A stretch of 64,000 nucleotides of DNA from Methanobacteriota archaeon (GTDB lineage: Archaea; Thermoplasmatota; E2; DHVEG-1). Shown here in pieces: positions 23,038-40,471 of the stretch. The position numbers and the translations under genes are program-made. The stretch lies in contig CAVYNH010000004.1 in assembly GCA_963769885.1 (NCBI GenBank), positions 320,001 to 384,000 of the forward strand. The letters are read 5' to 3'. The notes under the pieces were generated by a model. The model searched no databases. It worked only from the letters and a program-made list of their open reading frames with translations, and was not told the origin of the DNA. Every line of letters starts with the position of its first letter. Position 1 is the stretch's first letter.

Positions 23038-23053
23038 CGCCGGGAGGGAGATT
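23038..23053 (-). repeat. Distal att-like copy of the tRNA-Ser 3' end
   Basis: CGCCGGGAGGGAGATT matches 40389-40404 at 15/16; TTTACTGATAAA begins 10 nt after it. Confidence 0.75.
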
Positions 23054-23243
23054 TCGATTTAGATTTACTGATAAACAATCAGTTTCTTACCATAATATCT
23101 AAGAAATTTCATCACAAATTAATTATCTTAGAGATTCAAAAGACTCGAGCGCAATAAAAAAAATGCGTAAAATATTTCATAATTTGTAAACCCAAAGGAT
23201 TTATTAATGCCATTTTAGGTTATTGAAAACAGATAGAGGAATT

Positions 23244-23657
23244 ATGAGATTAGCCGTAGTAGACACAGAACGATGTATTGATTGCCAGAGTTGTATGTTT
23301 GCTTGTGCCCGGCGACAGAATGAAGCAGGATTATCCAGCTCCTGCATAGGAGTGAAATCGATCGGTGGCATGGAACGAGGGTTTATAGTGTTGGTTTGTA
23401 GAGCATGTGATGATCCTCCTTGTTCAAAAGTATGCCCAACTGATGCTCTCAAACCCAAGAAAGGAGGGGGCGTACTTCTCGATGCTGCAAAATGTATAGG
23501 GTGTGGTCACTGCCGTGATTCTTGCATTATCGGGGCAATTTTCTGGAATGATGAAATCAATAAACCAATGATTTGCATTCACTGTGGATATTGCACTCAA
23601 TTCTGTCCTCATGGGGTATTAAAATTAGAAAAGAAGGAGAGAATAATACATGCTTGA
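23244..23657 (+). CDS. 4Fe-4S dicluster electron-transfer protein (DmsB-like), AOR partner
   Basis: CIDCQSCMFAC, CRACDDPPCSKVCP, CIGCGHCRDSC, CIHCGYCTQFCP. Confidence 0.9.
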   Translation: MRLAVVDTERCIDCQSCMFACARRQNEAGLSSSCIGVKSIGGMERGFIVLVCRACDDPPCSKVCPTDALKPKKGGGVLLDAAKCIGCGHCRDSCIIGAIFWNDEINKPMICIHCGYCTQFCPHGVLKLEKKERIIHA

Positions 23658-25410
23658 GAATGATACGCTCTCCCGTGTACTGTATATCGATCTTTCAAAG
23701 AACGAGTTTTGGATTGAAAAAAAACCAGAGCTTTTCGAGAAGCATCTGGGCGGAACAGGTGTTGCAATCCAGCTGCTTCATGAAAACTGTCCCAAAGGAT
23801 GCAATGCGTTTGCACCAGAGAATCCAATTATATTCGCCGTAGGACCCTTAACCGGATTATTTCCTCTTGCTTCAAAAACCGTAGCCATGTTTAAATCACC
23901 TCATACTGGCAATCTGGGTGAGAGTCATTGTGGTGGACGAAGCGCTATTGCCATCCGTATGGCGGGATATGGAGCTATCGTGATCAAAGGATCAAGTGCT
24001 ACCCCATTATATCTATCCATCAAGGACAAAAAAGTGTTTTTCCGTGATGCCTCTACTTTATGGGGGATGGAAAATTGTTTCACCGTAGGACGTATCATTA
24101 GGGAAAATGAGCCTGGCTCGGGTTTAAGAACAATTATGCGTATTGGAGGAGCAGGAGAGAAACTTGTTTCATACGCATGTGTTACAACAGAAACATACCG
24201 TCATTTCGGTAGACTTGGTTTAGGAGCTGTTTTTGGAAGTAAGAAACTCAAAGCGGTAGTAATCGCTGGTAAACGCTCGCTCCCTGTACGTGACATGGAT
24301 CAATATCGGAAGCTGTATGATGATATTTATCAATCAGCTGTCACCTCGTCGGTAATGAAGAAATATCATGATCTTGGAACAGCTGAGAATGTTCTACCTT
24401 TAAATGAGCTCGGTGGGTTTCCTACAAGAAATCTTGAGACAGCAAAATTCGAAGGTGCTTCTAAACTATCAGGTGAGGTATTTGCTGAGCAGTATTTGGG
24501 GAGACGGCTTGCGTGTTCTCATTGTCCTGTAGGATGCATTCATATTGCCGCACTTAGGGAGTCATATGGAGATGAACCGTATTTCTATAAGACGTCTATG
24601 ATCTCGTATGATTATGAGCCTATCTATGCTCTCGGTTCCATGTTGGGAATATCCGATGCTGAAGGTTTCTTAAAATTGATGGAGCAGGTAGAAATACGAG
24701 GTTTAGATGCAATGAGTACTGGTGTTGTTTTAGCTTGGGCTACCGAGGCTCAAAAACGAGGTATTATATCTGAGAAGGAAACAATGGGTATCAATCTTCG
24801 ATGGGGTAATTATAATGCTTACATGGAGGCGGTACGATGCATTATTGAGCAACCAAATGAGTTTTACAAAGCGCTTGCACATGGAGTTAAACAGGCTGCT
24901 TCGCAGTATGGTGGGGCTGATTTTGCTTTAAGTCTTGGCGGTAATGAAATGCCAGGTTATCACACTGGACCTGGAGCGCATCTGGGGGTCTTGATTGGTT
25001 CAAGACATAGTCACTTAGATAACGCAGGTTATAGTATTGATCAAAAAATTCTGTTAACAAAACGGATTAGCTCTGAGGAACTTGCAAAAGTGTTATTAGA
25101 CGAGGAACGTTGGCGTCAGATTTTGTCAAGCCTTGTAATTTGTTTCTTCGCAAGAGGCATATTTACACCGGATATTGTCTCAAAAGCGTTGCAGGTGGTA
25201 GGTTTTGATTTTCAACCCGAAGATCTTCATAAAATCGGAGAAGAGATTCATAGAGAAAAATATAAGTTTAAGATCCGAGAAGGTTTCTCATTGGACACAC
25301 TTCATGCGCCTAAACGAATTTTTGAAACCCCTTCGCCAGTCAGTAATTTCGATGAGAAGTTCATCCTCGATGCTATAGCCTATGTCAAGAGAGAACTTTT
25401 ATTAGAATAG
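23650..25410 (+). CDS. Aldehyde:ferredoxin oxidoreductase family protein (W/Mo-pterin)
   Basis: KSPHTGNLGESHCGG, GRLGLGAVFGSKKLKA, CSHCPVGC, DYEP, GLDAMSTG. Confidence 0.93.
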   Translation: MLENDTLSRVLYIDLSKNEFWIEKKPELFEKHLGGTGVAIQLLHENCPKGCNAFAPENPIIFAVGPLTGLFPLASKTVAMFKSPHTGNLGESHCGGRSAIAIRMAGYGAIVIKGSSATPLYLSIKDKKVFFRDASTLWGMENCFTVGRIIRENEPGSGLRTIMRIGGAGEKLVSYACVTTETYRHFGRLGLGAVFGSKKLKAVVIAGKRSLPVRDMDQYRKLYDDIYQSAVTSSVMKKYHDLGTAENVLPLNELGGFPTRNLETAKFEGASKLSGEVFAEQYLGRRLACSHCPVGCIHIAALRESYGDEPYFYKTSMISYDYEPIYALGSMLGISDAEGFLKLMEQVEIRGLDAMSTGVVLAWATEAQKRGIISEKETMGINLRWGNYNAYMEAVRCIIEQPNEFYKALAHGVKQAASQYGGADFALSLGGNEMPGYHTGPGAHLGVLIGSRHSHLDNAGYSIDQKILLTKRISSEELAKVLLDEERWRQILSSLVICFFARGIFTPDIVSKALQVVGFDFQPEDLHKIGEEIHREKYKFKIREGFSLDTLHAPKRIFETPSPVSNFDEKFILDAIAYVKRELLLE

Positions 25411-25628
25411 ATAAGAAGTAACACTGGGCTTACAACAAAAAAATAATGCTTTTTCCTCCGTATTTATATTTTGATTAAAAAAATCTATAAAATAGTTCAG
25501 AGGAACGAGATGTGAACGTCAATTTACTGGTTTGCTCCTTAATTCATTGACACCCATCGTATAATGAATGGTTATGTCATCGGCCTGAAAAACTGTATTA
25601 CATCGATTACAGACATATTTCATGTATT

Positions 25629-25787
25629 TCAACTAATTATTCCGCTTAATTTATTATTTTTTATGTAAAAACTAGTCATGTAAACTATTTGTCTGCTATA
25701 TGGCCGTTGTTCTTTCTTCGCGAGTTTTTTAATGAGCACATTTTCTTCCTTTGTTAAAGATATATTCATTCGCATTCTTTTTTCCAT
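25629..25787 (-). CDS. Small ribbon-helix-helix-like DNA-binding protein
   Basis: MEKRMRMNISLTKEENVLIKKLAKKEQRPYSRQI: beta strand then two helices, CopG-like pattern. Confidence 0.6.
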   Translation of the reverse strand: MEKRMRMNISLTKEENVLIKKLAKKEQRPYSRQIVYMTSFYIKNNKLSGIIS

Positions 25788-25869
25788 GTTTACACAAACA
25801 TGTAATAACCTTACATACTTATATGCCTTTCTACACAAAGGTATATACTACCTACGACATACTACTATC

Positions 25870-26078
25870 ATCCGATAAACTTCGGAAAGGACCGCTGAAG
25901 TCAATGAAGATCAACGAACAAGTAAAACAACCATTGGAAACGCAAACGACTTCAAACTTTGCAATCAGGTCCTTATTTCCAGAGCCGGATACTTAACGCT
26001 TACTCTGAAAATGAAAACTAAGAAAATGAGATAAACGAAATATCAAGGGCGATCATATCGTCCAAGTCTCTTTTTTTA
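25870..26078 (+). ncRNA. Candidate structured ncRNA or leader upstream of the GH57 gene
   Basis: BRE/TATA-like AAAGGTATATA at about 25838-25848, nested stems AAGGACC/GGTCCTT, TGAAGTC/GACTTCA, CAATG/CATTG, then a hairpin and T-run. Confidence 0.35.
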
Positions 26079-26182
26079 GTAGGAAAAATAAGGAAAAAAT
26101 TTGTATATGCTTTGAGCGGAAATTTAGTAAGAGATAATGACCCCAAAGGTCAAGGAATCGAAGGTTATAAGGAGGGTATATA

Positions 26183-27370
26183 ATGCCATCAGTCTGTCTC
26201 TATTTCGAAGTTCATCAGCCAATGAGATTAAATCGTTTTACGGTATTCAATATAGGTGCAAACCATAATCGACCTTCCGAGTATTTTAATAGTAAACTTA
26301 ACCAAGAAATCTTTGAAAAAGTTGCAAAAAAATGTTATCTTCCAACAAATAAAATATTGCTTGAATTAATTAATAAATATGATGGCAAATTTCGGGTTTC
26401 ATTTAGTTTAACCGGTACATTCATTGAATATTGTGAACGTTATATGCCTTCGGTTCTTGATAGTTTTAAGGCTCTGTTTGCCACAGGTGCTGTTGACCTC
26501 ATCGAGGAGACATATTTTCATTCACTTTCAAGCTTGTATGACGATCTGGATGAGTTCGAAAAGCAAGTACATATGCATCGGCAGATGATAAAAAGAATAT
26601 TTAACTATGAGCCAAAGATTTTCAGAAACACGGAAACAATCTATGATAACCGTATAGCAAGAAAAATAGCCGAGTTGGGATACAAAGGAATTATCACTGA
26701 AGGAGCAGATAAGATTTTAGGATGGCGTTCACCAAACTTTGTCTACAAACCAGTGAACGCAAATATCAAAGTACTCATGAGAAACTACAAACTCAGCGAC
26801 GATGTCGGGTTCCGGTTTTCTTCACGAAACTGGCCAGAATTCCCGCTGATGGCAGATAAATACGCGAACTGGATGTCCAACTCCTTTGGTGATGTCATTA
26901 ACCTGTTCATGGATTACGAAACCTTCGGGGAACACCAATGGACGGAAACCGGGATCTTTGAATTCCTCAAGCATCTCCCCGGGGAAGTCTTTAAACATGA
27001 TAACCTTGATTTTGCTACCGTCAGCGAAGTGGTTGAGCGATATAAACCTGTTGGAGAAATAGATGTCCCCTGGGCAATTTCATGGGCAGATGAAGATCGG
27101 AACGTCTCAACATGGCTTGGAAATGATATGCAAATAGCATGTTTTAACGAATTAAAAAACATCGGTAGAAAACTGAAAGAAAAGGGTAATGAGGTGCTAC
27201 TCAAAACCTGGCGTCGTCTCCAAACATCAGATCATTTGTACTACTGTTCAACAAAAGGTTTTGCTGACGGAGCTGTCCATGCCTATTTTAGCCCATATGA
27301 TGATCCCTACGAAGGATTTATGAACTACATGAATATATTACAAGATTTAAAACAAAGAGTAACTATGTAA
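26183..27370 (+). CDS. Glycoside hydrolase family 57 (alpha-amylase type)
   Basis: YFEVHQP, ETYFHSL, FRNTET, FMDYETFGEHQW, LQTSDH. Confidence 0.93.
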   Translation: MPSVCLYFEVHQPMRLNRFTVFNIGANHNRPSEYFNSKLNQEIFEKVAKKCYLPTNKILLELINKYDGKFRVSFSLTGTFIEYCERYMPSVLDSFKALFATGAVDLIEETYFHSLSSLYDDLDEFEKQVHMHRQMIKRIFNYEPKIFRNTETIYDNRIARKIAELGYKGIITEGADKILGWRSPNFVYKPVNANIKVLMRNYKLSDDVGFRFSSRNWPEFPLMADKYANWMSNSFGDVINLFMDYETFGEHQWTETGIFEFLKHLPGEVFKHDNLDFATVSEVVERYKPVGEIDVPWAISWADEDRNVSTWLGNDMQIACFNELKNIGRKLKEKGNEVLLKTWRRLQTSDHLYYCSTKGFADGAVHAYFSPYDDPYEGFMNYMNILQDLKQRVTM

Positions 27371-28567: not shown

Positions 28568-28880
28568 AAAAAAATATTATTTTTTATCTTTCTTGCCGCT
28601 ATCTATTATTTTTCTAGCTCTATCAACACCGTGTTCGTAGTCGTCTTTTCTAAGTTTAATTCTTCTCGTTTTTCTTTTATTATAATCTGGATGTTTTTTA
28701 ATGTGAGGCATATATTTTAGAACATTTGCTGATTTAAAAAGATATCTGGTGACTGGAAAAATGTTGAATCAATCCAATAATTTTTCTATGCTCATGACCG
28801 TTAGTGCAGAGGACAAGAAATTGACACGATTTTAAAAGTAAAAAAATTGTGTTTTTCTTCTATTAATTAACCGTGCTAAT
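28568..28880. repeat. Module terminal repeat, copy 1
   Basis: Colinear with 37533-37804 plus 38509-38547; last about 45 bp also match 40335-40382. Confidence 0.9.
28577..28711 (-). CDS. 44-aa basic microprotein (MPHIKKHPDY family), copy 1
   Basis: MPHIKKHPDYNKRKTRRIKLRKDDYEHGVDRARKIIDSGKKDKK; conserved with copy 2; TTTAAA box about 22 nt upstream. Confidence 0.7.
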   Translation of the reverse strand: MPHIKKHPDYNKRKTRRIKLRKDDYEHGVDRARKIIDSGKKDKK

Positions 28881-29074: not shown

Positions 29075-29425
29075 TTACGAATTTTTCTCAGCAATGTCAC
29101 CAACAACAGGCAATTTCCATTTCTGCCCCTGGAACGCTTTAATCATCAGAATAACCCACAAGATTATCACAAGGACCCAGAACAGCCAGCTGATCCACCA
29201 CAGGAAATACCAACCAGGGCCGTAATTGAATAACCCGAAAAACCCACCGAAAATCCACCCGAGGATGGATAGTGGCAGAAACACCAAAATAGACTGCATC
29301 GCATGAAAACGAATCGTCTTATTTTTATCATCGATAAAATAGAAGATTATGCCGGTGATCCAAATCCCAAGGTAACAGAGCGCTGCCTCAACATTTTCCT
29401 CAAGTCCTAACGATGTTTTTACCAT
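29075..29425 (-). CDS. DUF4870-like membrane protein
   Basis: GLEENVEAALCY...IRFHAMQS...KLPVVG. Confidence 0.85.
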   Translation of the reverse strand: MVKTSLGLEENVEAALCYLGIWITGIIFYFIDDKNKTIRFHAMQSILVFLPLSILGWIFGGFFGLFNYGPGWYFLWWISWLFWVLVIILWVILMIKAFQGQKWKLPVVGDIAEKNS

Positions 29426-29505
29426 ATTTTTTCCTTCTGTCCATTCACACTCATCTTTTATTTAATGATTTTCATTCATCGCATGTATCGTTTTTTAAAA
29501 CGCTA

Positions 29506-29697
29506 TCATAATCCGATACTGTGAAAGATACCCACGAGAAAATCGAGTCCGATGAGAGCGATAATTACTATTGCGATGAAGATGAGAACCCATATAGCAA
29601 ATTTTATTACTCCCCATAGCAGAAACACGATCACAAGAATTCCAAGAAGTACCGCCCAAAACGGAATTGTATAACCAAATACATCCATCTCTTTCAC
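29506..29697 (-). CDS. Small two-TM membrane protein
   Basis: 63-aa hydrophobic ORF, GGAG RBS. Confidence 0.6.
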   Translation of the reverse strand: MKEMDVFGYTIPFWAVLLGILVIVFLLWGVIKFAIWVLIFIAIVIIALIGLDFLVGIFHSIGL

Positions 29698-29816
29698 TTC
29701 TCCGTCTACAAACGATTATTTTTATTTCTTTTTTTCTGAAACACCTTCATTTACATCTCTCTTTTATTTATTCATTCTCATTCGGTAAATAGACGAGCGG
29801 ACAAACTAACCAATAT

Positions 29817-29954
29817 TTAAGTCCTCATTATGTTTTTACCTGCTGGACGGTTTTTAACCATCCCCTTTCCACCCGGACGACCGCCTGTCTTTGCTCCTCT
29901 TTTAGCTCGGTTTTTGGCTGCCGTCATTCTGCCGCCTCTGCTTTTCTTTGCCAT
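29817..29954 (-). CDS. 45-aa Lys/Arg/Gly-rich basic microprotein
   Basis: MAKKSRGGRMTAAKNRAKRGAKTGGRPGGKGMVKNRPAGKNIMRT; GGAGGT RBS; no acidic residues. Confidence 0.65.
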   Translation of the reverse strand: MAKKSRGGRMTAAKNRAKRGAKTGGRPGGKGMVKNRPAGKNIMRT

Positions 29955-30021
29955 ATTTTATCTACCTCCAAATTTTTTCTTTTTTCATTCTATTTTGTCT
30001 CTCATTTTGAGGTCCAAGATA

Positions 30022-30168
30022 TCAAACGACTTTTATGATTCCCATTAACACCATGACGATAATTGCCAATACTATCGCTCCGAGAAGACCGAAAATGAAC
30101 CAACCTGCCAGGAATGCTATTACCGAAAATATTGTGATGTGGGTCCATTCAACTTTTATGGCTGCCAT
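30022..30168 (-). CDS. 48-aa hydrophobic membrane microprotein
   Basis: MAAIKVEWTHITIFSVIAFLAGWFIFGLLGAIVLAIIVMVLMGIIKVV directly after the lipoprotein gene. Confidence 0.6.
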   Translation of the reverse strand: MAAIKVEWTHITIFSVIAFLAGWFIFGLLGAIVLAIIVMVLMGIIKVV

Positions 30169-30178
30169 TTTAATCGTC

Positions 30179-30526: not shown

Positions 30527-30575
30527 CTAAATACCTCAGCGTATGGTCCTATCAACTCCCGGTCTATATATAGAA

Positions 30576-30611
30576 ATGACTTAAAAACAATAAAAAAACA
30601 GTATAAAAACA
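30576..30611 (-). promoter_or_regulatory. Shared promoter/operator element, copy 1 (diverged)
   Basis: ATGACTTAAAAACAATAAAAAAACAGTATAAAAACA about 50 bp upstream of the 30526 start. Confidence 0.65.
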
Positions 30612-31171: not shown

Positions 31172-31274
31172 TTTTTCCGCTCCAGGCTCCAGTACTGTTT
31201 ATTTACATTTTCTTAGTTTATCTGAGAACAAGGAATAAGTATTGTGTATTCCGTGAACCAGATAAGGTTAACGT

Positions 31275-31970: not shown

Positions 31971-33626
31971 CTATGCAGTCTGTCGTTTATGCAGCAATGT
32001 TTTTCCTTTTTCTGTCACATAGACCGTTCGATACTTTCCTTGTTTTTTTAAAAAAATCAGACCTTTTTCTTCAAGGAGATTTAATCGTTTTGCAGCAGTT
32101 GAATACGCTACGTTAGAATTGGTTATTATTTTTTTGAAAGAAACCATTGAATTACTCTGATTTTGTTCATAAACATATTTTAACATATCATAGAGAATAT
32201 CATCGAGAATAAGACCGTCTAATTTCTGGCTCGGTAATAATTGAAATTCATTTTCAAAAATCGCCATCTGACTATTATCGACAATCGACGGATCGATACG
32301 TAGTACGACAATCAATTGACTCTTCAGAACAAGATCGTTAATTTTATACATGGCATCAATAAATTTTTCAAAAGAAAATTTAGTGATAAAATAATGCGCG
32401 CCATCTATTGCGATAATTGATTTTTTATTTCTCAGACTTATTTCTTTCACCATGGCTACTAATTCATCGGGGTTTGCAATTGTTTCAAATCCTTTGATTT
32501 TTTCATGACTTAATAATAAAAGCTGGCTGTTCAAATTATGAGACATGTTACCTGTCATTTCAACACTAGAACGGGAAATAAACATTCCCTCATATCCGGA
32601 TGTAGTCAAATCTCTATATAAATCTCGTACAGAGCTATTATTTTTACTAATGATAAGATAGCTGTTCCCTACAAGTATTTTCCCGTGAGCTTCGATATCT
32701 CCTGTGATGTCTCTGCCGATAAAAAGAGAGCCGATGGTTATCCCATCAGGATTCTTAACCGACGATTCTGATATTCGAATGATCTTTTTTAAATTATTTT
32801 TTGTCAGTAACACCAAATCATCATGCCCTTGGTGAGTACCGTTATTTTTTATAATATCTAATATTTTCGAATGGCCATTAAACACAGATAAATTTTCTAT
32901 AGATCGATTCATGACCTCTTTTTCGGTATAGCCCGTAAGCAGTTCCGTTGTTTTATTCCAGGTATTTACTCTATTGTTCGAATCGAATGAAAAAATAATC
33001 TCTGATGCACTATCAATGATGTTCTCCAGATAATCTTTTGTTTTCACAGTTTCATCTTCTGCTTTTTTCCGCTCCTTCGTTTCACTTGAAAGGTTTTTAG
33101 TTGTTGTCTTAAGTTGTGCGGTCCGAGCATTAATGAGTTGTTCTAATTTTTTTTGCATTTGTAGCATTTTTTCTTGTTCTTTCTTACGTTCTGTGATATC
33201 TCTAATATTACATTGGATTACTTTTGTATGATCGACCATGTAGCTATTACTGACAAATTCCACATATCTTAACTTTTTTTGTTTCGTTTGAAGTGGGAGA
33301 TGTTCATAACGGACGTATGTTTCTTTTTGAAGTTTTTGAAATAGTTCTATGTTTTCTGCGATATTTTTAAAAGGGCTAATTTCCCAGAGTTTTTTTCCCT
33401 TGAGTTCATTCAGAGAATAACCCAGAAGATTTTGAACGAATGGATTAGCGTCTGTTATTTGTCCGGTTTCTCCATCCAAAATAAGGATAGCATCTTGAGC
33501 TGCTTCAAAGAGTCGCCTATAGCGTAATTCAGAATTTTTTAATATTTCGTCATCTATCTGATGTTGAGGGTCATTAGATTTTATTCCTGTTTTGAAATTA
33601 GTAATGGCGTTATTTTTTGGGACCAT
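31971..33626 (-). CDS. One-component sensor/regulator: two PAS domains, DUF835-like domain, C-terminal winged HTH
   Basis: SELRYRRLFEAAQDAI...RDITERKK, second PAS, IAIDGAHYF, YSTAAKRLNLLEEKGLI...VTEKGK. Confidence 0.8.
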   Translation of the reverse strand: MVPKNNAITNFKTGIKSNDPQHQIDDEILKNSELRYRRLFEAAQDAILILDGETGQITDANPFVQNLLGYSLNELKGKKLWEISPFKNIAENIELFQKLQKETYVRYEHLPLQTKQKKLRYVEFVSNSYMVDHTKVIQCNIRDITERKKEQEKMLQMQKKLEQLINARTAQLKTTTKNLSSETKERKKAEDETVKTKDYLENIIDSASEIIFSFDSNNRVNTWNKTTELLTGYTEKEVMNRSIENLSVFNGHSKILDIIKNNGTHQGHDDLVLLTKNNLKKIIRISESSVKNPDGITIGSLFIGRDITGDIEAHGKILVGNSYLIISKNNSSVRDLYRDLTTSGYEGMFISRSSVEMTGNMSHNLNSQLLLLSHEKIKGFETIANPDELVAMVKEISLRNKKSIIAIDGAHYFITKFSFEKFIDAMYKINDLVLKSQLIVVLRIDPSIVDNSQMAIFENEFQLLPSQKLDGLILDDILYDMLKYVYEQNQSNSMVSFKKIITNSNVAYSTAAKRLNLLEEKGLIFLKKQGKYRTVYVTEKGKTLLHKRQTA

Positions 33627-34016
33627 TTACTTCGCCCCCGTTTACACAAAATTGAAACTGTTTAGTATGTTTTTATAGTGTCATGCATAAGATAAAATGA
33701 AAATACGTTTTATATACTTTTCTCATAAAGCCAGATGATTTTTAAATTTCTGTCTACAATTTTACATTCTTCAGGAACTGTATAGAATTTTATGGTTTAT
33801 ACTGTTTTTCAATTGATTTTTATATATTATTTAGTCATGCCTATATACTTACGAGAACATAGATGGAAGTATCGACCGAGGTTAAAAAATGATAAACGGA
33901 ATAATAAGATTGCTTGTAGGCGTAGTTGTGATCGTCGTTCTAATATGGATAATACTAGCAGTCGTGCACGCATTTTAATTTGAATACGCATAGAGAAACC
34001 TGGAGAAAAGGTCAAC

Positions 34017-34214
34017 ATGAGCGATAAAGAAAAAATAGTCTCAGCACTTCGCCTCATCAACGGAAAAAAGGAGAATGTGGAGAAGATAGCGGAGACGGTA
34101 GACAAGTTTTTCGAGAATCTGCACCTTGAAATAGAGGACTGGAAATTTTCGATGGAAGAGTTCAGCGATGGCACACGTATCTTTATTCGGTTCCAAATCC
34201 TTGTAAAAAAGTAG
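34017..34214 (+). CDS. Small protein, WKFS family copy 1
   Basis: 65 aa, DWKFSMEEFSDGTRI; paralog at 36520-36699. Confidence 0.7.
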   Translation: MSDKEKIVSALRLINGKKENVEKIAETVDKFFENLHLEIEDWKFSMEEFSDGTRIFIRFQILVKK

Positions 34215-34224
34215 GTGGTTCTAA

Positions 34225-34851
34225 TTGAATCCTGATACGAATAAGGCAAAGAGTAAACCCAATACGAAGACGACAAAGTCAGAGCATGTCCTCATAGATC
34301 CTGAGGAATGGAAAGATCCTGATGGACGGAGAGTTGTCGCGGAATACCACAAGAAGAATCTTCCGGAAACACAAGCTGACAATGGAATGCAAGACGAGAC
34401 GAATGATGAGGTAAAATCATCGGATACAGAAACCACAGGTGATTCATCAGAACAGAAGTTGCGTATATCACGGATCTTGGATATTTCTACAGTTGAGATG
34501 ATAACGTACGCTTTGTTCCGCGCCATGTTCGGTAAAAGTATCCATATACCTTTGAAACGCGAGGGCGTCATAGATATGGATATCGCTATTGAGGATAACG
34601 ATATCATCCTAAACACCAACGATGTCACATTCATACCGCCTGATCTAAAAATCTGGCGCCTCATATTCACATATAAAAATAAACCAATAATAGAATACGG
34701 TCGTGGAATCAAACGCGGCATGAAGATTCACTACGGCCATGCGATTATCTTCCTCCTTGCAATGTGGTCCGGGGGTAGAAAGACTAGGAAGGCCCAGGAA
34801 AAAGCCGCTAAAATCGCAGAATTGGAAAAAACCCGCAACAGCGAAGGTTAA
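34225..34851 (+). CDS. Hypothetical protein
   Basis: 208-aa ORF between the WKFS gene and the kinase; start uncertain. Confidence 0.65.
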   Translation: MNPDTNKAKSKPNTKTTKSEHVLIDPEEWKDPDGRRVVAEYHKKNLPETQADNGMQDETNDEVKSSDTETTGDSSEQKLRISRILDISTVEMITYALFRAMFGKSIHIPLKREGVIDMDIAIEDNDIILNTNDVTFIPPDLKIWRLIFTYKNKPIIEYGRGIKRGMKIHYGHAIIFLLAMWSGGRKTRKAQEKAAKIAELEKTRNSEG

Positions 34852-34882
34852 AATAAGATAAATAATAAGAAAGGTACAGATA

Positions 34883-35758
34883 GTGATGACCAATAAAACG
34901 GGGCAACCTACCCATGAAGCCCATCAGGCCTTTCTACAGGATATACAGCGCAACATCCGACGGATCCTATCCGAAAATTATAAGATGAAAAAGATTTCCA
35001 TCGAGTATATTGCTGCAGGCGCCGCTCGACTTTCAAATCCGATAAAAATCACAGGGGTGAACGAAAAAGGGGAAAAGATCCGTTACTTCGGCAAGGTCAT
35101 CGGCAGCAACGATATTTTGTCAGTCCGCTACATCCAGTTCCTTAAAAACATCTATCTGGAGATGAATACACAACAACCGCTCTTCGAGATGTACGAGACG
35201 ACAGAGGACATGGTCCGAGATCAATACGAGATGATGCAAACTATTTATAAAAGCGGAATACCAGCGATAAAGCCATATGGCTATCATCAAATAAATCGTT
35301 CTCAGTGGCTGCTGGTAGCGGAGTTTCTCGATGTAAAACCATTCTCCATGCTTGAGAAGGTCGATCCAAAACAGATAGACTTAGTCTTTTGTTATCTAAA
35401 ACAGGAACACCGGAAGAAGATCTTCCATGGGGATATCAAACCCGATAATATATTGGTAGGGGATAAGATTTACATTTTAGATGCCGGCCACTTCCGTAAG
35501 GACGCGCCCCCAGCAGAGAAACTGTCCTACGATCTCGCCTGTATGATAAGCTCTTTTCTTGAGTACCAGCCTGTTGAAGAAATAGTAAAGATTGCTCAGA
35601 AATACTACTCCCAACGGTTTATTCAAGCAGCTGCGGACTACATCGAACTCATTCAGATGCGCCCGGATATCCATTTTACCAACGAAACAAAACAAAAACT
35701 TCTGCTCCTTCTGAAAGGTCAACGAGAAGCAGGGTATCGAAAAAAGACATCACGCTAA
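34883..35758 (+). CDS. Protein-kinase-like (RIO/Kdo/APH-type) protein
   Basis: HGDIKPDNILV catalytic loop, LDAG, LVAEFL. Confidence 0.8.
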   Translation: MMTNKTGQPTHEAHQAFLQDIQRNIRRILSENYKMKKISIEYIAAGAARLSNPIKITGVNEKGEKIRYFGKVIGSNDILSVRYIQFLKNIYLEMNTQQPLFEMYETTEDMVRDQYEMMQTIYKSGIPAIKPYGYHQINRSQWLLVAEFLDVKPFSMLEKVDPKQIDLVFCYLKQEHRKKIFHGDIKPDNILVGDKIYILDAGHFRKDAPPAEKLSYDLACMISSFLEYQPVEEIVKIAQKYYSQRFIQAAADYIELIQMRPDIHFTNETKQKLLLLLKGQREAGYRKKTSR

Positions 35759-35823
35759 CGTACCTTCCTGTTTATCGGGTAGAGATATGTTAACTGCCAT
35801 AGCATGCAAATATAATACTTGTT

Positions 35824-36444
35824 ATGGTAATGGTAATGATAGATATGGAAAAAAAAATTAATGTCGTAGATTTGGATAGCACGTTACTGCCCTATGATTC
35901 GTTGATACATTTCGTATGGCTTTTCATGAAAAATCGGCGATGTTTCCTTCCATTATTATTGTACTTGACACAACGAATGACTGGAAATATAACAAAAGAG
36001 GAGTATCTTAAAAAAATTCTGATTACTGCAAGGAAAACAACGCAATATGAAAAAAAAGTAAAAAAGTTTGGTCTGTCGTTGTATGATGATATTCGTACAC
36101 CAATGTTACGTTTTATCTTAAAAAATACCGATGAGTTTACGACTAACGTACTCTGCACAGCATCACCTCAAGATTATGTTAAATATCTATGTGAAAAACT
36201 AGGTTGGTCGTGTATAAGTAGTACACTGGATGACAATGACGAAAATTTCATTCATATGTACGGACCTAACAAAGTATCTGCTGTACAAAAAATGTACCCC
36301 AAACAAGATTATTCCTATCATTTAGCAATGTCGGATAACAAAAGTGACCGCGATCTGTTGAAATTATTTGAAACATCGTATCATATAAAAAAAGGTGTAA
36401 AAGTACATATTAAAAAAATCAACAAGATAGAAGTTAAAAGGTAA
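35824..36444 (+). CDS. HAD-superfamily hydrolase
   Basis: VVDLDSTL motif I, CTASP motif II, K, SDNKSD motif IV. Confidence 0.82.
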   Translation: MVMVMIDMEKKINVVDLDSTLLPYDSLIHFVWLFMKNRRCFLPLLLYLTQRMTGNITKEEYLKKILITARKTTQYEKKVKKFGLSLYDDIRTPMLRFILKNTDEFTTNVLCTASPQDYVKYLCEKLGWSCISSTLDDNDENFIHMYGPNKVSAVQKMYPKQDYSYHLAMSDNKSDRDLLKLFETSYHIKKGVKVHIKKINKIEVKR

Positions 36445-36453
36445 AAATTTGCT

Positions 36454-36483
36454 GCACCTTTTTCTAAACATACCAAAGGTGCA
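36454..36483. terminator. Hairpin between convergent genes
   Basis: TGCACCTTT...AAAGGTGCA inverted repeat. Confidence 0.45.
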
Positions 36484-36519
36484 ACTTTGATAAAAAATAG
36501 AGCGTTATACCTACTGGCT

Positions 36520-36699
36520 TTACTTTTTGTCCTTTGGATGTTTGATAAGAGCTATCGCGTGCATTTCCACCCGCATACCTTCTTTGGTATCCTCGACGGA
36601 AAACTTCCACTGCTCCAGCTTCGCATCCATATCCATGAACCATTTCTTAAGCTCTTGACTCTTCGTCTTCAAATTATCTCCTACATTTTTACTCGCCAT
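36520..36699 (-). CDS. 59-aa small protein, WKFS family copy 2
   Basis: MASKNVGDNLKTKSQELKKWFMDMDAKLEQWKFSVEDTKEGMRVEMHAIALIKHPKDKK; GGTGA RBS; missed by the ORF track. Confidence 0.75.
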   Translation of the reverse strand: MASKNVGDNLKTKSQELKKWFMDMDAKLEQWKFSVEDTKEGMRVEMHAIALIKHPKDKK

Positions 36700-36748
36700 T
36701 AGTTATCACCTATACATACTCCATTGTTACCGTGTTATATCAGTATGA

Positions 36749-36785
36749 CTTAAAAACAACTAAAGAACAGTATAAAAACAATGTA
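36749..36785 (-). promoter_or_regulatory. Shared 37-bp promoter/operator element, copy 3
   Basis: CTTAAAAACAACTAAAGAACAGTATAAAAACAATGTA, 50 bp upstream of the 36699 start. Confidence 0.75.
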
Positions 36786-36888
36786 ATACTTTTAAAAAAA
36801 TTAGGCCGTTTGAACATTGATTCAAAATTTCTTGATTGCACAATATGCATTATATAGAACTAATAGTATACCTGCTGCAGAGGAAAAA

Positions 36889-37428
36889 ATGAGGAAAAAA
36901 CCTTCTGTAAATTCTAAAAAGGATAAGACAAATCTAGCGAATAAACCATCCCTGATAGACAGCGACATAACTGAAATATCTCAAAGGATTTTATTGGAGC
37001 TTGAAACCGCAAGTTCCAAGGATTTATCAGAAGCCAAATATGCAAAAAAGATTTTACAATTGTCGGATCTTGATTATACAAAAAACTTATTTCGCGAGAT
37101 AGAAAGTGTTCCATCTGGACCTGAACGCGTTATCGAAAAAAGAGCGGTGATCCAGGCATTGTTGCTTTCTACATGGTTGCAGAGGCTCTATTTTATTATC
37201 AGGGCCGCTCTTATGTCGGTCCTAGGCGCGGTCGTTACATTCTTTTACGTATTGTTCTTTGGCCAAATAGGTGTTGTTCTAGCAGTTATCATGGGCGTGC
37301 TTATTTTTATTATTGGATTGATTGTGACAAGATTATTTGATACACAAATAGTCAAGGCTACAAAATATATCGTCAGACGTTTGAGTTATCATAAAAAGAT
37401 TAGGGAATTTATTATGAATCACTTCTAG
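36889..37428 (+). CDS. Hypothetical membrane protein (two C-terminal TM)
   Basis: ATG 36889 with GAGG RBS; hydrophobic hairpin. Confidence 0.65.
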   Translation: MRKKPSVNSKKDKTNLANKPSLIDSDITEISQRILLELETASSKDLSEAKYAKKILQLSDLDYTKNLFREIESVPSGPERVIEKRAVIQALLLSTWLQRLYFIIRAALMSVLGAVVTFFYVLFFGQIGVVLAVIMGVLIFIIGLIVTRLFDTQIVKATKYIVRRLSYHKKIREFIMNHF

Positions 37429-37675
37429 GCGAAATGTAGGGCCAATTAATTGATAGGATAATGTATGAATTGTAGAGATTATCAGAATGCCTCATGTTAC
37501 AAAGAAGCTTACAGTTTACACTTATCTCGATTAAAAAAATATTATTTTTTTTCTTTTTGCCGGCATCCACTATTTTTCTAACTCTATCAGCGCCGTGCTC
37601 GTAATCACCTTTTTCAAGTTGGGTTCTTCTTGTTCTTTTTTTCATATAATCTGGATGTTTTTTAATATGAGGCAT
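37412..37675 (-). CDS. MPHIKKHPDY family basic microprotein, copy 2 (stop shifted by a 1-nt loss in an A-run)
   Basis: First about 43 aa homologous to 28577-28711; the rest is run-on. Confidence 0.65.
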   Translation of the reverse strand: MPHIKKHPDYMKKRTRRTQLEKGDYEHGADRVRKIVDAGKKKKNNIFLIEISVNCKLLCNMRHSDNLYNSYIILSINWPYISPRSDS

Positions 37676-37804
37676 ATATTTTAGAACATTTGCTGATTTA
37701 AAAAAATGTCTAGTGTCTGAAAAAAATTCGAATCAATCCAATAATTTTTCTTTAATCATGACCGTTAGTGCAAGTGACGAAACATTGACACGAATTCACT
37801 AGTA

Positions 37805-38508
37805 ATGAAATAGGGGCAAAGCCCCTATGACCCCGTTCCGCCTTCGTTCCTCGGCAAGCCCTTTTGGTCTTGCCGTATCTCACTCGGCGGATAGTCGTTT
37901 TTGTCGGTCGTCGATGATGGTCACGTTGTGATGTCGTTGCTGATCCCGTAGGTAGGCTGAGGATTCATCGAGGTTGGTCAGGCCGGTGGATTCGTGGTGC
38001 TCGTACCCGCTCCAGAATCCACCTCGCGGGTAGCGTTTGCGAAACCCGGGGTGCGCCCCGAACAGCTTCATAGCGCTGTGGGATTTGAGCATGATCTCAG
38101 CGCTCTGAATGGAGTACCGTTTTGGGACATTGACCTGGAGGTGGACGTGGTCTTCGGCGAACCCGAGTTCGCCGAACCCGAACCCAAAGCGTTCCAGGTC
38201 ATGGAACGCCTGGGTGCAGGAGTCGATGTGGCTTTGTTTGCTGAAGCAATGGTAGCGGTTCTTGGTCACAAACATCATGGTAACCCAGTTATTGCGGGTG
38301 TCACCCGCAACCTTTTTAGAGCTATCGCTCGATACAATCTCCATAAGTTTTTGAACTCCAGTCGCGCCAATACAGGGGCAGGCGGAACGCCTGCCACGCG
38401 CGACAAAAAACGAGTATCGAGTGTTTTGAGAAAAAGACGACGAGCGGCCTTTCATCTGCAGGTCTTACGCTGTTGCTTCAGACCGTGCAGTATTCCCGGC
38501 CGCTATTG
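37805..38508 (-). mobile_element. IS200-type insertion sequence (tnpA only, about 704 bp)
   Basis: GC-rich insert with hairpins at both ends; on the tnpA strand preceded by TTTAT and ending TTCAT; ends uncertain by a few nt. Confidence 0.85.
37880..38344 (-). CDS. tnpA: IS200/IS605 Y1 HUH transposase
   Basis: EDHVHL (HUH), GGFWSGY, YLRDQ (YxxxQ). Confidence 0.9.
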   Translation of the reverse strand: MEIVSSDSSKKVAGDTRNNWVTMMFVTKNRYHCFSKQSHIDSCTQAFHDLERFGFGFGELGFAEDHVHLQVNVPKRYSIQSAEIMLKSHSAMKLFGAHPGFRKRYPRGGFWSGYEHHESTGLTNLDESSAYLRDQQRHHNVTIIDDRQKRLSAE

Positions 38509-38550
38509 ATAAATTGTGTCTTCCTTCTGTTAATTAACAGTGCTAATGAT

Positions 38551-38570
38551 TAGCGCGGGCAGGGAGATTC
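38551..38570 (-). repeat. Internal att-like copy of the tRNA-Ser 3' end
   Basis: TAGCGCGGGCAGGGAGATTC matches 40386-40405 at 19/20; palindrome TTTACTAGTAAA at 38580-38591. Confidence 0.85.
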
Positions 38571-38752
38571 TGACTTCATTTTACTAGTAAAAAATTATGT
38601 TGCATATCTGTTAAACGATTTTTTTCAATTTTAGAGGTCCCTGTATGGATCTGAGCATCAATTTACCAGTAAATTTATTCATGATTCAATGTGGATAGCG
38701 AATATCTTTATTATAGAATGTATTGATTGCACAATTGATTCAGGAGCATCGT

Positions 38753-39232
38753 ATGGTGGATGAAGTTCTAATAGATAACCTGGTTGTTTTTTCTGCAATT
38801 ATCTACTATGCTTTCTTATGTGTAGTTTATTTGTTGCGCGCCTATGAGCGCGATAAACTGGAATTGATGCTTGCCCCGGTCTTTAGTTTGCTGCTGGTGC
38901 CATTTGTTGCTTTGTGGACGTTGAACCTTCTCAATGGAAGCGACAGTGGACGCTTGATTACGGGGCTTCCGATAATCATCTATCTGGTCTACGATCTCTG
39001 GTATCGTTTAATTACGAAAAAGAAACCTCAACATCATCCCGACCGTTGGCCTATTGGTTTGATAGTATACCTCATACTCCTTCAAATTGGGAGTATAGCC
39101 TTGAATTGGTACGGGTTCATCGTATCGAAATTCTATGGAAATATGCTTATAATCTGCTACTTCGTCATGCTAGGTTGTTTTGGGTTTTACCAAAATAGAT
39201 ACAATAAGAGGAAAAAGATCATTACGAACTGA
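38753..39232 (+). CDS. Hypothetical membrane protein (about 5 TM)
   Basis: AGGAG RBS, hydrophobic ORF. Confidence 0.7.
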   Translation: MVDEVLIDNLVVFSAIIYYAFLCVVYLLRAYERDKLELMLAPVFSLLLVPFVALWTLNLLNGSDSGRLITGLPIIIYLVYDLWYRLITKKKPQHHPDRWPIGLIVYLILLQIGSIALNWYGFIVSKFYGNMLIICYFVMLGCFGFYQNRYNKRKKIITN

Positions 39233-39320
39233 TGGCAAAGGATGCAGGGGAAGAGACTTGAACACCAAAATACAAGCAACAAATACAGGTTTCCTCTTTA
39301 AACTGAAAAAATCTTCTAAT

Positions 39321-40135
39321 TCATTTTGTCTTAACAAAAGGCTTTTTTAGAAAAGAAAGAGCAGAAGCGTAGATTGAAATTGTAATCAAAGGAATATGCA
39401 AGATACCGTTCCACCATAATTGGTCGGGGATCATAATAAAATTTACTAAAATGTTATAGAAGGCTAGAATGAGCCCAACAAAACTCGTGACTCTCAGTGT
39501 TGCTATGTTAACCCGTGGGTAATAAAAGGTGAGTATTGCAAGATACACTGGCGTCATCATACAGAAAAATAGACCCGTAGCATTCGAAAAAATGTAAAGA
39601 GGATTGAAATCGGGCAGGTAAGTATTTGGATTCGCAGGATAACAAAACGCTAGAAACGCGAAGGGAATCACCCAATATTTCCATAAAGGCTGTTTTGAGG
39701 TGTGAAATCATTTTTCTGAGCCAGTACCTCCCAGAACCAAAAAGCAGCGACAATACAAATCGCAACGAGATTGCTTGTGACAATTCCTAAACCATATTCT
39801 TCAGTAACGGCAATGTTTTGAAGAAATGCAAAAAGAACATAGGAGATAGCCACATAAATGCTAAAGAGACGTGTAACCTTGTTTCGGAGAAAGAAAATTG
39901 AAAAAATTAAGATGATCGGGATTATTTTAAAAATTGGATATATTACAGGATAGGAATATATTACACCATCCTTTCCAAGTATCGCACTTGTGAGTTTTCC
40001 TATTTCTGTTAAATCAACTCCTTTTGATGTGTAAAGTGGAATGAATTGTGCAAGGATAATAACGAGAAAAAATCACCATTTTCTGGTTAGTGATTCCAGT
40101 TTTGTTTGAATTCTATCAAGATTTTTAATGTTCAA
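39321..40135 (-). pseudogene. Multi-TM membrane protein pseudogene
   Basis: TTG start with RBS, in-frame TGA at 40073-40075, frameshift near 39700 joining ...KNDFTP to KQPLWKYWVIPFAF. Confidence 0.75.
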
Positions 40136-40334
40136 ATAATTTCTCTCCTTAATTACACTGTTTGAGTAAATCAATTATGAGACGGATATTTGTCTGAAGA
40201 ACTTATAACTTACTGCAATCATTCATCCTCTCATCTATCAGACAAATAACGCCTCCATTTTTTTGTTCAAAAGAGAGGGAGAATATTTATTTAAAAATAG
40301 TAATAAGATTGCACCTTTAGGATCTAAGCGTCGA

Positions 40335-40388
40335 TGTACCGATAAAAATTGTGTTTTTCTTCTGTTAAATAATTATGCTAAAGAATAG
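40335..40388. repeat. Module terminal repeat, copy 3 (short), abutting tRNA-Ser
   Basis: AATTGTGTTTTTCTTCTGTTAAATAATTATGCTAAAGAATAG aligns gap-free with 38512-38553. Confidence 0.8.
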
Positions 40389-40471
40389 CGCGGGGAGGGA
40401 GATTCGAACTCCCGAGGTCAAAGACCACAGGATTAGCAATCCTGCGCCTTACCAGGCTGGGCCATCCCCGC
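40389..40471 (-). tRNA. tRNA-Ser(GCT)
   Basis: Acceptor GCGGGGA/TCCCCGC, anticodon arm CAGGA-TTGCTAA-TCCTG, long variable arm, GTTCGAATC, discriminator G. Confidence 0.96.

Follow-up and report, generated by a model that had tools for sequence, protein, structure and literature searches.

A probable tandem stack of non-autonomous or decayed tyrosine-integrase modules at a tRNA-Ser(GCT) gene in a Thermoplasmatota archaeon

Islands made by tyrosine integrases at tRNA genes have been described both as Islander-type islands (PMC4383910) and, in archaea and bacteria, as arrays in which a single site was used repeatedly (PMC6563490). For the thaumarchaeal "cryptic integrated elements", an integrase is part of the definition (PMC6563490). 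Three further systems bear on what follows. CIMEs are the cis-mobilizable elements of streptococcal ICEs (PMC6323972), Prochlorococcus has islands built by tycheposons (bioRxiv 10.1101/2020.12.28.424599), and archaea have the "suicidal" integrases of the SSV type (PMC7253208), which would likewise explain an archaeal tRNA island that appears to have no integrase.

Here we describe a foreign island of 17 kb (23038-40388, 38% GC) behind a tRNA-Ser(GCT) gene, in a window that is a 64,000-nucleotide stretch of one contig. GC content is about 0.60-0.64 outside the island and 0.30-0.47 within 23001-40400, so an earlier note on this DNA was right to call it AT-rich. The low-GC DNA begins at the 3' end of the intact tRNA gene (40388), and at the other side the GC step coincides with the distal end of the array. 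The flanking neighbours are tRNA-Ser/rfcL and an FAD oxidoreductase gene; the synteny of tRNA-Ser and rfcL is conserved at seven loci of the family. Displaced fragments of the tRNA 3' end, in direct orientation, lie at the far end (23038-23056) and at an internal joint (38553-38574), the two sites where the note had placed tRNA copies. An integrase gene is missing: there is no match to PF00589 or PF16795 in the island (C4:343038-360388), and Pfam searches of 20 island ORFs gave no PF00589 or SSV-type integrase. The claim that the island has no recombinase gene holds for these integrases, but a Y1 transposase ORF is present. The features are as follows.

23038..23075, plus strand: distal end of the array, a displaced tRNA-Ser 3' fragment (23038-23056) and then the palindrome TTTACTGATAAA (23064-23075)
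23223..27370, plus strand: cargo of the distal module (Pfam: 4Fe-4S ferredoxin, aldehyde:ferredoxin oxidoreductase, GH57)
28569..28879, minus strand: repeat D1a, with a 44-aa microprotein ORF (28577-28711), a degenerate palindrome and motif copy 1
29075..37428, no strand assigned: cargo of the middle module (Pfam: DUF4870 protein, lipocalin-like protein, PAS-PAS-DUF835-wHTH, kinase-like, HAD, membrane protein)
37533..37811, minus strand: repeat D1b, a copy of a basic microprotein gene (MPHIKKHPDY.., ORF 37412-37675)
37812..38510, minus strand: insertion sequence of the IS200/IS605 type, 699 bp, with a Y1_Tnp ORF (37880-38455, minus strand; Pfam E 3.7e-13)
38512..38546, plus strand: motif copy 2, the Y arm of the middle module
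38553..38574, plus strand: internal copy of the tRNA-Ser 3' end (19/22), the joint between two modules
38575..38673, plus strand: distal (X) arm of the proximal module, with a palindrome, block C' and a second core-like block
38723..39232, plus strand: proximal-module cargo, a multi-pass membrane protein of 169 aa without a Pfam family
40320..40346, plus strand: fossil core-like block GGATCTAAGCGTC and degenerate palindrome GATGTACCGATAAAAA, recognised by inspection of the sequence
40347..40381, plus strand: motif copy 3, the tRNA-proximal (Y) arm, its closing inverted repeat (9 bp, GCTAA..TAGC) overlapping the end of the tRNA
40388..40471, minus strand: tRNA-Ser(GCT), the presumed integration target, its 3' end facing the island (ARAGORN; Rfam tRNA, 56 bits)

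The joints are built from three parts, which we call the core, the palindrome and the motif. The core is the tRNA copy, which at the internal joint has three mismatches in 22 positions where no such match is expected by chance. At both core copies the tRNA-derived GGGAGATT is followed, after a gap of exactly 10 nt, by a near-palindrome, TTTACTGATAAA at 23064 and TTTACTAGTAAA at 38580; this spacing had been reported before and we confirm it. The centre of the palindrome is variable yet always palindromic (ACTAGT, ACCGGT, GTTAAC), and the strict form occurs six times in the 2.09-Mb genome, four of them in att contexts. The 35-nt motif AATTGTGT..TGCTAA lies at 28845, 38512 and 40347, with 0.00 copies expected in 100 shuffles, and these are the sole three copies in the genome. 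Those at 38512 and 40347 each stand 41 nt ahead of the core or tRNA end, the equal spacing that had been claimed. The copy at 28845 is followed by neither a tRNA fragment nor a palindrome. The described motifs are all there, but each terminus is a larger composite unit of about 150 nt. The X arm, for example, consists of the palindrome TTTACTAGTAAA (38580-38591), the motif-like block C' (38590-38640), and the second core-like block with the palindrome TTTACCAGTAAA (38647-38673). That last piece is repeated directly at 40320..40346, the pair bracketing the cargo of the proximal module, and a core-like block of the same type also precedes the motif in many relatives. The motif includes a TATA-like TTAAATAA, placed at each joint. 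An Rfam search of the joints matched no family.

The exceptional copy of the motif is part of a 340-bp repeat (D1 plus motif), in which 28569-28879 matches 37533-37811 together with 38511-38547. The IS200-like element splits the second copy, the alignment break at 37811/38511 marking its insertion point, and is a secondary insertion between D1b and its motif. Eight full copies of this element (85-89% identity) are found elsewhere in the genome, on C7, and Y1_Tnp has 12 matches in the genome as a whole. Behind motif copy 1 (28880) the expected core and palindrome are missing. D1 has 85% nucleotide identity to a relative (G109:C18) in which a core-like block and palindrome come next, and the sequence after motif copy 1 matches G111:C22 about 180 nt past the junction of that genome. 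The array in the window is thus visibly old and decaying, as its degenerate cores, the lost core at 28880 and the IS insertion make plain.

The cargo differs from module to module. The distal module has a 4Fe-4S ferredoxin (23223-23657), an aldehyde:ferredoxin oxidoreductase (23650-25410) and a GH57 glycoside hydrolase (26183-27370); 23243-25328 is 72% identical in nucleotides to G018:C67, and pieces of the module match a single G018 contig in a rearranged order. In the middle module a PAS-PAS-DUF835-wHTH regulator is encoded at 31971-33626 on the minus strand, and further genes are those for a kinase-like protein (34883-35758), for a HAD hydrolase (35824-36444) and, at 36817-37428, for a membrane protein; nucleotide identity to G122:C208 is 85-89% over 30829-31481. 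The membrane-protein gene of the proximal module is 92.9% identical in G107, which belongs to another genus, 85% in G001 and 84% in G098, and in each of the three it lies behind the same junction or beside tRNA-Ser.

Searches with a sequence model of the motif matched 34 of 108 genomes of the family, in 16 of 40 genera, with one to seven copies each, and about 28 metagenome contigs, sediment metagenomes included. Arrays exist in relatives as well (three copies on G118:C132), and diverged copies of the termini stand behind other tRNAs of this genome. The family and metagenome copies always abut either a full tRNA 3' end or a degenerate tRNA fragment with the 12-nt palindrome. Seven full tRNAs are found at the motif: Ser-GCT, Met-CAT, Thr-CGT, Thr-GGT, Val-CAC, His-GTG and Arg-GCG. 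About 50 junctions adjoin unrelated genes for membrane or secreted proteins without an integrase, the neighbours including heliorhodopsin, glycosyltransferase, DUF998, LPG synthase, FG-GAP, beta-helix, C25, S8 and AOR proteins. The first gene after the junction shows no orientation bias (about 18 on the plus strand versus 22 on the minus). Junction units are 75-90% identical between genera while the cargo between them differs, stacked remnants of core, palindrome and motif without any cargo are present, and the tRNA-Ser site of G001, from the same genus, is loaded differently. It is important to realize that the repeats are not one plain duplication. None of the three outcomes that the note itself had named as refuting its reading was obtained.

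The genome of our window has at least six more integrase-less modules of about 0.95-2.3 kb, flanked by repeats of tRNA 3' ends at tRNA-Leu (CAA, CAG, TAA and GAG) and tRNA-Glu. Their core is abutted by the palindrome known from the tRNA-Ser island. At tRNA-Leu CAG and TAA the repeats are perfect over 24-25 nt and enclose single-gene modules in which arm, gene and arm are tightly packed. The membrane-protein cassette of the tRNA-Ser island is 93% identical to that in genus g18, versus about 65% for the host gene rfcL. In at least eight genomes the core is where homology to an M14-peptidase cassette sets in; its place here is tRNA-Leu(CAG), whereas G111 has it at tRNA-Leu(TAA). Modules that lack an integrase and lie between tRNA 3' repeats are therefore pervasive and exchanged between genera, and so the earlier note was right that there is a family of non-autonomous cassettes which stack at a tRNA. 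Since the same kind of module is found behind many tRNA genes of the family, genes seem to travel in it as small dependent cassettes.

The arms are linked to one family of integrases. On the metagenome contig L139 the C-terminus of a tyrosine integrase runs into a palindrome-core-motif junction, and this integrase matches one on C7 of our genome (E 2e-17). G107:C119 retains just the last 30 codons of an integrase (97% identity) at the same place, and in both contigs it is the stretch homologous to the X arm that runs into the integrase 3' end. At least some modules, then, have lost an integrase of their own. G079:C2 shows the order palindrome, tRNA fragment, promoter and 402-aa integrase. Of the full-length proteins related to the L139 integrase, the closest is encoded on G109:C45 (89% identity), in the opposite layout, tRNA then integrase, and with a different tRNA-proximal arm. 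Motif and integrase family co-occur (15 of 34 genomes with the motif versus 14 of 74 without, odds ratio 3.4, p 0.01, a comparison that ignores phylogeny). An integrase or its stump stands at only two of about 50 junctions, and support for a cognate integrase is therefore weak. Apart from L139, a single integrase-type gene turned up among the ORFs at about 90 loci, an XerA-like one on L156 that is unrelated and lies 7.6 kb away from the junction, and in seven fragmented genomes no contig holds both a PF00589 match and the motif. Distant integrases could be missed, since many of the assemblies are fragmented and the junctions lie near contig ends. Among contigs of public runs there was no excised circle or empty-site joint.

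We believe the island is probably a tandem stack of integrative, non-autonomous or decayed tyrosine-integrase modules at tRNA-Ser(GCT). At least three modules would each have been inserted into the 3' end of the tRNA gene by site-specific recombination, a newer one displacing the older ones from the tRNA and leaving a 3' fragment at every joint. They would belong to a tRNA-targeting element family that spread through this family of Thermoplasmatota with its attachment region conserved. On the tRNA-proximal side this region has the motif, usually with a 12-nt palindrome before it, and then the tRNA-derived core; on the distal side it has another 12-nt palindrome and a motif-like block. Each module has between one and a few cargo genes but lacks an integrase, and would be a streamlined cassette or the stump of an element that lost its integrase. 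It would move only if an integrase of the family of about 410 aa, encoded elsewhere in these genomes, acts on its ends. The chemistry of the recombination is inferred, as are binding roles for palindrome and motif and any mobility at the present day; mobilisation in trans would be a plausible route. The observation in the earlier note is thus partly confirmed and its interpretation partly supported.

How does such a stack compare with the known systems? Like Islander-type islands and arrays it has an intact tRNA at one end, direct-orientation 3' fragments at the far end and internal joints, foreign composition, and an order in which the newer elements would be closest to the tRNA. Unlike them it has no integrase in the island or, the two cases above aside, in about 50 related junction neighbourhoods, and its modules are very small, often one gene. 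The best reading is one of non-autonomous or decayed elements comparable to CIMEs or tycheposon islands. As in CIMEs, genes for integration and transfer are lacking while attL and attR are kept: cores and arms flank the proximal module, with core copies that have degenerated here but are perfect in the tRNA-Leu cassettes. Tandem residence with related elements at one site is shared as well, and reliance on the integrase of another element would be. The differences are the archaeal host, no conjugative partner in sight, far smaller cassettes behind many tRNAs, att arms conserved over at least seven target tRNAs, and a mobilisation that we propose from sequence. Tycheposon islands are likewise tRNA-adjacent, with successive integrations separated by partial tRNAs alone, degenerate elements, fragmented integrases, scattered partial tRNAs and niche-adaptive cargo. 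They differ in the domain of life and in an integrase lineage that we take to be another; here no replication or excisionase module is seen, to be without an integrase is the rule, and the arms are strongly conserved, including a covarying palindrome.

The strongest competing explanation is that all these modules are pure relics. Complete autonomous elements would have arrived with their own integrases, deletions would have removed these and most other genes, nothing would still be mobile, and the conserved ends would reflect recent common ancestry. The integrase stump of G107, at the junction homologous to 38553, is what this predicts, as are the degenerate cores at 23038 and 38553, the core and palindrome lost at 28880, the IS element inside one terminus and the cargo-free remnants; degenerate elements and scattered partial tRNAs are also described for the tycheposon islands already cited. 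We nevertheless think it rather unlikely, though far from negligible. Modules without an integrase are far commoner than those with one, the ratio being about 6-7 to 1 within this genome and, for the junctions, about 50 to 2; two single-gene modules are tightly packed between perfect repeats, and arms are retained while cassettes move between genera and between tRNA-Leu genes. Homologous recombination after DNA uptake or cell fusion, with the conserved tRNA and junction units of about 150 nt serving as portable anchors for module swaps, would account for similar junctions around different cargo, for the rearranged pieces in G018, and for the contigs of related strains, which break at the core (23042-23049). 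It is improbable as the whole explanation, since homologous exchange makes no direct repeats of a tRNA 3' end, and perfect repeats around single genes, together with an intact tRNA and a displaced fragment, are the signature of an integrase (Islander, PMC4383910). It may act secondarily.

The analogy with integrons drawn in the earlier note is loose. Small, unrelated, non-autonomous units do stand in arrays between conserved recombination sites, and the TATA-like sequence at each joint might suggest a resident integrase capturing promoterless cassettes at a fixed site with a common promoter. But there is no intI/attI platform: no integrase adjoins the arrays or shares their contigs in the genomes searched, and on its other side the tRNA is followed by conserved housekeeping genes, rfcL among them. 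Instead of folded attC sites the joints have a tRNA 3' fragment, a 12-nt palindrome and the motif, genes run in both directions and apparently have their own promoters, and many chromosomal tRNAs serve as sites. This reading is largely refuted and very improbable. Chance matches, an assembly artefact or plain duplication might be suspected of short repeats in AT-rich DNA, and we reject them as having next to no probability: shuffles predict no matches, the same composite unit recurs in dozens of independent genomes and metagenomes, and public contigs cover parts of the island independently. An SSV-type element is also rejected, with PF16795 absent genome-wide and stop codons in all frames over 38553-38720, so that the core at 38553 is not spanned by any open frame; the linked integrases, unlike those of SSV type, have about 410 aa and are intact members of PF00589. 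A casposon is rejected as well, the ends not being mutual inverted repeats and Pfam giving no Cas1 or PolB among the island ORFs.

One observation concerns the motif itself. Two types of distal arm accompany it, one with the palindrome and another, at tRNA-Met, that is hairpin-like. Such a pairing would be odd for an arm site of an integrase, so the motif may have another role.

The arrangement behind tRNA-Ser(GCT) is a real feature, statistically secure and found family-wide. GC content falls from about 0.60-0.64 outside to 0.30-0.47 within 23001-40400, against a genome mean of 0.54. An internal copy of the tRNA-Ser 3' end at 38553-38574 has 3 mismatches in 22, where chance predicts no copy at all, and a further copy lies at 23038-23056. 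In both, GGGAGATT is followed 10 nt later by a near-palindrome, TTTACTGATAAA at 23064 or TTTACTAGTAAA at 38580. A 35-nt motif occurs at 28845, 38512 and 40347; shuffled sequences predict 0.00 copies, and the 2.09-Mb assembly has no others. Since the tRNA-end copies, near-palindromes and motif copies were all re-found in the sequence, the coordinates of the earlier note are right throughout. It overlooked a 279-nt repeat (28569-28847 and 37533-37811, 81-83% identical) contiguous with the motif, and also that each island terminus is a portion of a longer composite unit. Its claim that there is no recombinase gene holds for tyrosine and SSV-type integrases, neither of which the island contains, but not for the IS200-like element, which has a transposase ORF. 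Positions of the tRNA and of this element:

40388-40471, minus strand: tRNA-Ser(GCT)
37812-38510 (699 bp): IS200-like element with a Y1 transposase ORF, parting the second copy of the 279-nt repeat from its motif

Both copies of the 279-nt repeat also hold, by the motif, a 44-aa basic microprotein (MPHIKKHPDY...; 28577-28711 and 37412-37675); at 37412-37675 the frame continues through a K-run into a longer frame. Copies 91% identical exist only in two relatives (G109:C18 and G104:C49), and we reject the microprotein as a conserved part of the element because it is present in only 3 genomes.

A Pfam scan of 20 island ORFs found ferredoxin with aldehyde:ferredoxin oxidoreductase, a GH57 hydrolase, membrane proteins, an IS transposase, a PAS-PAS-DUF835-wHTH regulator, a kinase-like protein and a HAD protein. 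The 169-aa ORF behind the 38553 junction was considered as a recombinase and rejected; it is a membrane protein. A family of 72-nt direct repeats (30548-30619, 31883-31954 and 36717-36788, the last two 85% identical) is intergenic in the middle module and surrounds the gene of the PAS-wHTH regulator. The 699-bp IS200-like family (191-aa Y1 transposase) is present in the genome as 9 or more full copies at 85-89% identity, 8 of them on contig C7. A copy 93.6% identical sits in the tRNA-Ser island of the same-genus relative G001 (G001:C14:22105-22818) with different genes on either side.

The earlier note took the termini to belong to a family of mobile units, and they are indeed present outside this locus. 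Of 108 family genomes screened with a sequence-only covariance model, 34 carry the motif, at 1-7 copies each, and they span 16 of 40 genera. A degenerate pattern adds 7 archaeal records (labelled Thermoplasmata, Thermoplasmatota or archaeon) and about 28 metagenome contigs; viral contigs gave 0 matches to the pattern. Read in the window's orientation, every motif copy is followed by a complete tRNA 3' end or by a degenerate tRNA 3' fragment, the latter leading into a 12-nt palindrome and then a motif-like block. The complete tRNAs are Ser-GCT, Met-CAT (intron-bearing), Thr-CGT, Thr-GGT, Val-CAC, His-GTG and Arg-GCG. The palindrome centre differs (ACTAGT, ACCGGT, GTTAAC) yet is always palindromic, the pattern expected from a dimeric DNA-binding protein, and we infer a putative binding role. 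Upstream of the motif there is usually a second palindrome together with the fossil of a tRNA-like fragment; at several loci this fossil is the antisense of the tRNA-Glu 3' end. The whole unit therefore reads fossil core, palindrome, motif, core, palindrome, motif-like block. This is how tandem integrated elements with conserved att arms appear. Other genomes too have arrays with several joints, such as G118:C132 with three and, behind tRNA-Ser, G014:C33 with two.

The end of the motif and the first tRNA bases form a 9-bp inverted repeat that straddles the tRNA end with a 1-3-nt spacer (CGTGCTAAT / ATTAGCGCG). It is found at 38538-38556 and 40373-40392 and at all motif copies in relatives, and is retained behind different tRNAs, imperfectly in some. 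The motif is common to subfamilies that differ in core and distal arm. Arrays at tRNA-Met(CAT, intron) in the low-GC genus g18 and in metagenomes (L067, L070, L072, L101, L136, L140, L143) have the same motif at their joints; their distal arm is different, conserved and hairpin-like, GGGAACGTATCCCCGGGGTTACAGTTCCC being an inverted repeat about the palindrome CCCCGGGG. The junction unit fits no Rfam family. In integrase-bearing relatives the motif occupies the place of the integrase promoter. The motif may serve as arm site, promoter or terminator, but we reject the idea that it drives the gene that follows the junction, since these genes show no orientation bias.

Tyrosine integrases that integrate at and re-use a tRNA site leave an established signature (PMC4383910; PMC6563490): the tRNA stays intact, 3' fragments of it lie displaced but in the same orientation, conserved arms flank the tRNA-derived core on either side, and newer units are closest to the tRNA. 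Since the layout here is that signature, we conclude that the island is a stack of at least three tyrosine-integrase-type modules at tRNA-Ser(GCT):

23057-28880: distal module
28880-38552: middle module, its joint partly deleted
38575-40387: proximal module

Casposon or transposon ends were rejected because the termini are not inverted, and an SSV-type split integrase because the genome has no SSV-type match.

The genome's 8 PF00589 matches all lie outside the island. In closed genome G008 such matches are far from tRNA-Ser, and among 7 fragmented genomes, which have between 2-7 copies of the motif apiece, no contig has both a PF00589 match and a motif. A phmmer and blastx comparison of this family's integrases with every reading frame in about 90 motif-bearing loci turned up, besides one real case, nothing but an unrelated XerA-like gene at a distance of 7.6 kb. 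Behind about 50 junctions the cargo includes heliorhodopsin, glycosyltransferase, DUF998, LPG-synthase, FG-GAP, beta-helix, C25 and S8 peptidase, AOR, catalase and Mrp antiporter genes. The heliorhodopsin gene (L093:4546-5535, from G043:C62 in another genus; Pfam E 9e-93) stands directly behind its junction. A recurrent neighbour gene as hidden recombinase was rejected: all-against-all clustering of 2092 ORFs from 44 loci yields only post-tRNA host genes and beta-helix surface proteins.

The one real case is metagenome contig L139. Its tyrosine integrase fragment, 126 C-terminal residues that match the C7 integrase of this genome (C7:166687-167937) at E 2e-17, runs into a palindrome-core-motif junction. 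G107:C119 has the same type of junction with the integrase cut to its last 30 codons (97% identity), followed by a homologue of window ORF 38723-39232; the window retains even less of the integrase. G079:C2 has a member of this integrase family that is intact (402 aa), and ahead of it stand a palindrome (TTTACTAGTAAA), a 3' fragment of a tRNA and a promoter. These three loci argue that the palindrome arm is part of the att sites of an integrase family of about 410 aa, and at least one module lineage has lost its integrase through deletion.

When the stretches downstream of this genome's tRNA genes were surveyed for copies of the tRNA 3' ends, an integrase turned up only in a 12.8-kb island at tRNA-His.

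Integrase-less modules in this genome (tRNA; length; repeat mismatches; cargo)
Leu-CAA; 2.3 kb; 1; nitroreductase and unknown protein
Leu-CAG; 1.39 kb; 0; secreted M14 carboxypeptidase
Leu-TAA; 1.0 kb; 0; unknown protein
Leu-GAG; 0.95 kb; 1; PAS-PAS protein
Glu-TTC; 1.06 kb; 3; CAAX protease
Glu-CTC; 8.7 kb, further core copy at 18.9 kb; 1 (2 at further copy)

A palindrome (TACCGGTAAAC or TACCGATAAAC) lies directly against the core in three of the tRNA-Leu modules; that of Leu-GAG differs (ATGCCGGCAT) and is set a few bases off, and the tRNA-Glu flanks have diverged motif copies. The strict palindrome occurs 6 times in the genome, 4 of them in att contexts of this kind. The ORFs of about 300 aa in the small tRNA-Leu and tRNA-Glu modules were rejected as short integrases, being PAS, CAAX-protease and unknown proteins. 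The M14 cassette on C7 (164948-166365; locus L200, 949-2366) is a single gene for a secreted M14 zinc carboxypeptidase between perfect 24-25-nt tRNA-Leu(CAG) 3'-end repeats with the same palindrome arms; on its other side are tRNA-His and an integrase, 225 nt away.

Exchange between genomes is evident in the comparisons. The M14 cassette is in 41 of the 108 genomes, with homology beginning at the core in at least 8, and G111 has two tandem copies with the same arms behind tRNA-Leu(TAA). The membrane-protein cassette is 92.9% identical to G107 of another genus, 85% to G001 and 84% to G098; for the host gene rfcL beside tRNA-Ser the figures are 74% with G001 and about 65% with g18 genomes. Some stretches of the island show 72-89% nucleotide identity to low-GC genera of the family, whose loci were fetched solely for carrying the motif. 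The tRNA-Ser locus of G001 bears a different load, as the earlier note envisaged for relatives: in order, a subtilase, the same IS family, an arylsulfotransferase, an internal core between inverted palindrome halves, a methyltransferase, a catalase and the membrane-protein gene. For related strains in wetland and freshwater-sediment metagenome contigs, similarity to the window breaks off at 23042-23049 and at 40391. Logan contigs of public runs, small in their shares, gave some weak single-contig joints (e.g. 28809 to 38647) and no convincing circle or empty site; none of 21 whole junction-bearing contigs has the terminal overlap of a circle. The tRNA-Leu(CAG) of G001 was rejected as a clean empty site; it has no cassette, but the locus differs otherwise too.

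These are integrase-less tRNA-anchored cassette arrays in an archaeal family, with putative mobility. They are unlike the ordinary case in that the integrase-less state is the rule family-wide and many units are compact, one-gene modules whose ends are intact or even perfect. There are two possible readings. The units may be non-autonomous cassettes served by resident integrases, like CIMEs, which also depend on an integrase in trans (PMC6323972); perfect repeats, compactness, the cassette-to-integrase ratio and the crossing of genera by cassettes together with their arms argue for this at the level of the family. They may instead be quick-decaying relics, like the degenerate elements of tycheposon islands, and the integrase stump in G107 and the decay visible in the window favour this reading for the window's own array. 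Homologous recombination via the conserved joints may contribute, but it is unable to create the tRNA-end repeats. An integron-like platform is unsupported because the arrays have no adjoining integrase and no attC sites, and the first gene behind the junction has no orientation bias. We hold tentatively, and lean somewhat against, the larger idea of an archaeal gene-cassette system, in which single-gene integrase-less cassettes with an attachment region of about 150 bp (palindrome, motif, tRNA-derived core, palindrome) would circulate between genera of the Thermoplasmatota family while tyrosine integrases encoded at other places in the genome capture, stack and release them at many tRNA 3' ends.

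If that system is true, it would be the functional counterpart of integrons, anchored at tRNA genes and supplying membrane and secreted proteins. Mobilisation in trans would mean that, in an archaeal family widespread in sediments and wetlands, much of the accessory gene pool (peptidases, oxidoreductases, rhodopsins, surface proteins among it) moves as one-gene units via tRNA-anchored arrays; it would provide a concrete recombination site and a candidate integrase family, and would account for MAGs of the family breaking at tRNA genes. To our knowledge such a flow has been outlined in bacteria (CIMEs, tycheposon islands, integrons) and is undescribed for archaea. Even if the units are relics, the conserved arms are a practical marker to delimit foreign DNA in these genomes.

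Two further observations concern this genome. At C6:290454-292370 three tRNA-Leu 3'-end copies, each with 1 mismatch, enclose modules 0.55 and 1.35 kb long, one of them an M14 cassette copy (83% identical); no tRNA gene is near, so this array stands apart from its tRNA. A second low-GC region (60300-64000) begins about 1.3 kb past tRNA-Gly(CCC) (58934-59005) and opens with a 414-aa tyrosine integrase at 60341-61585 (PF00589, 63 bits).
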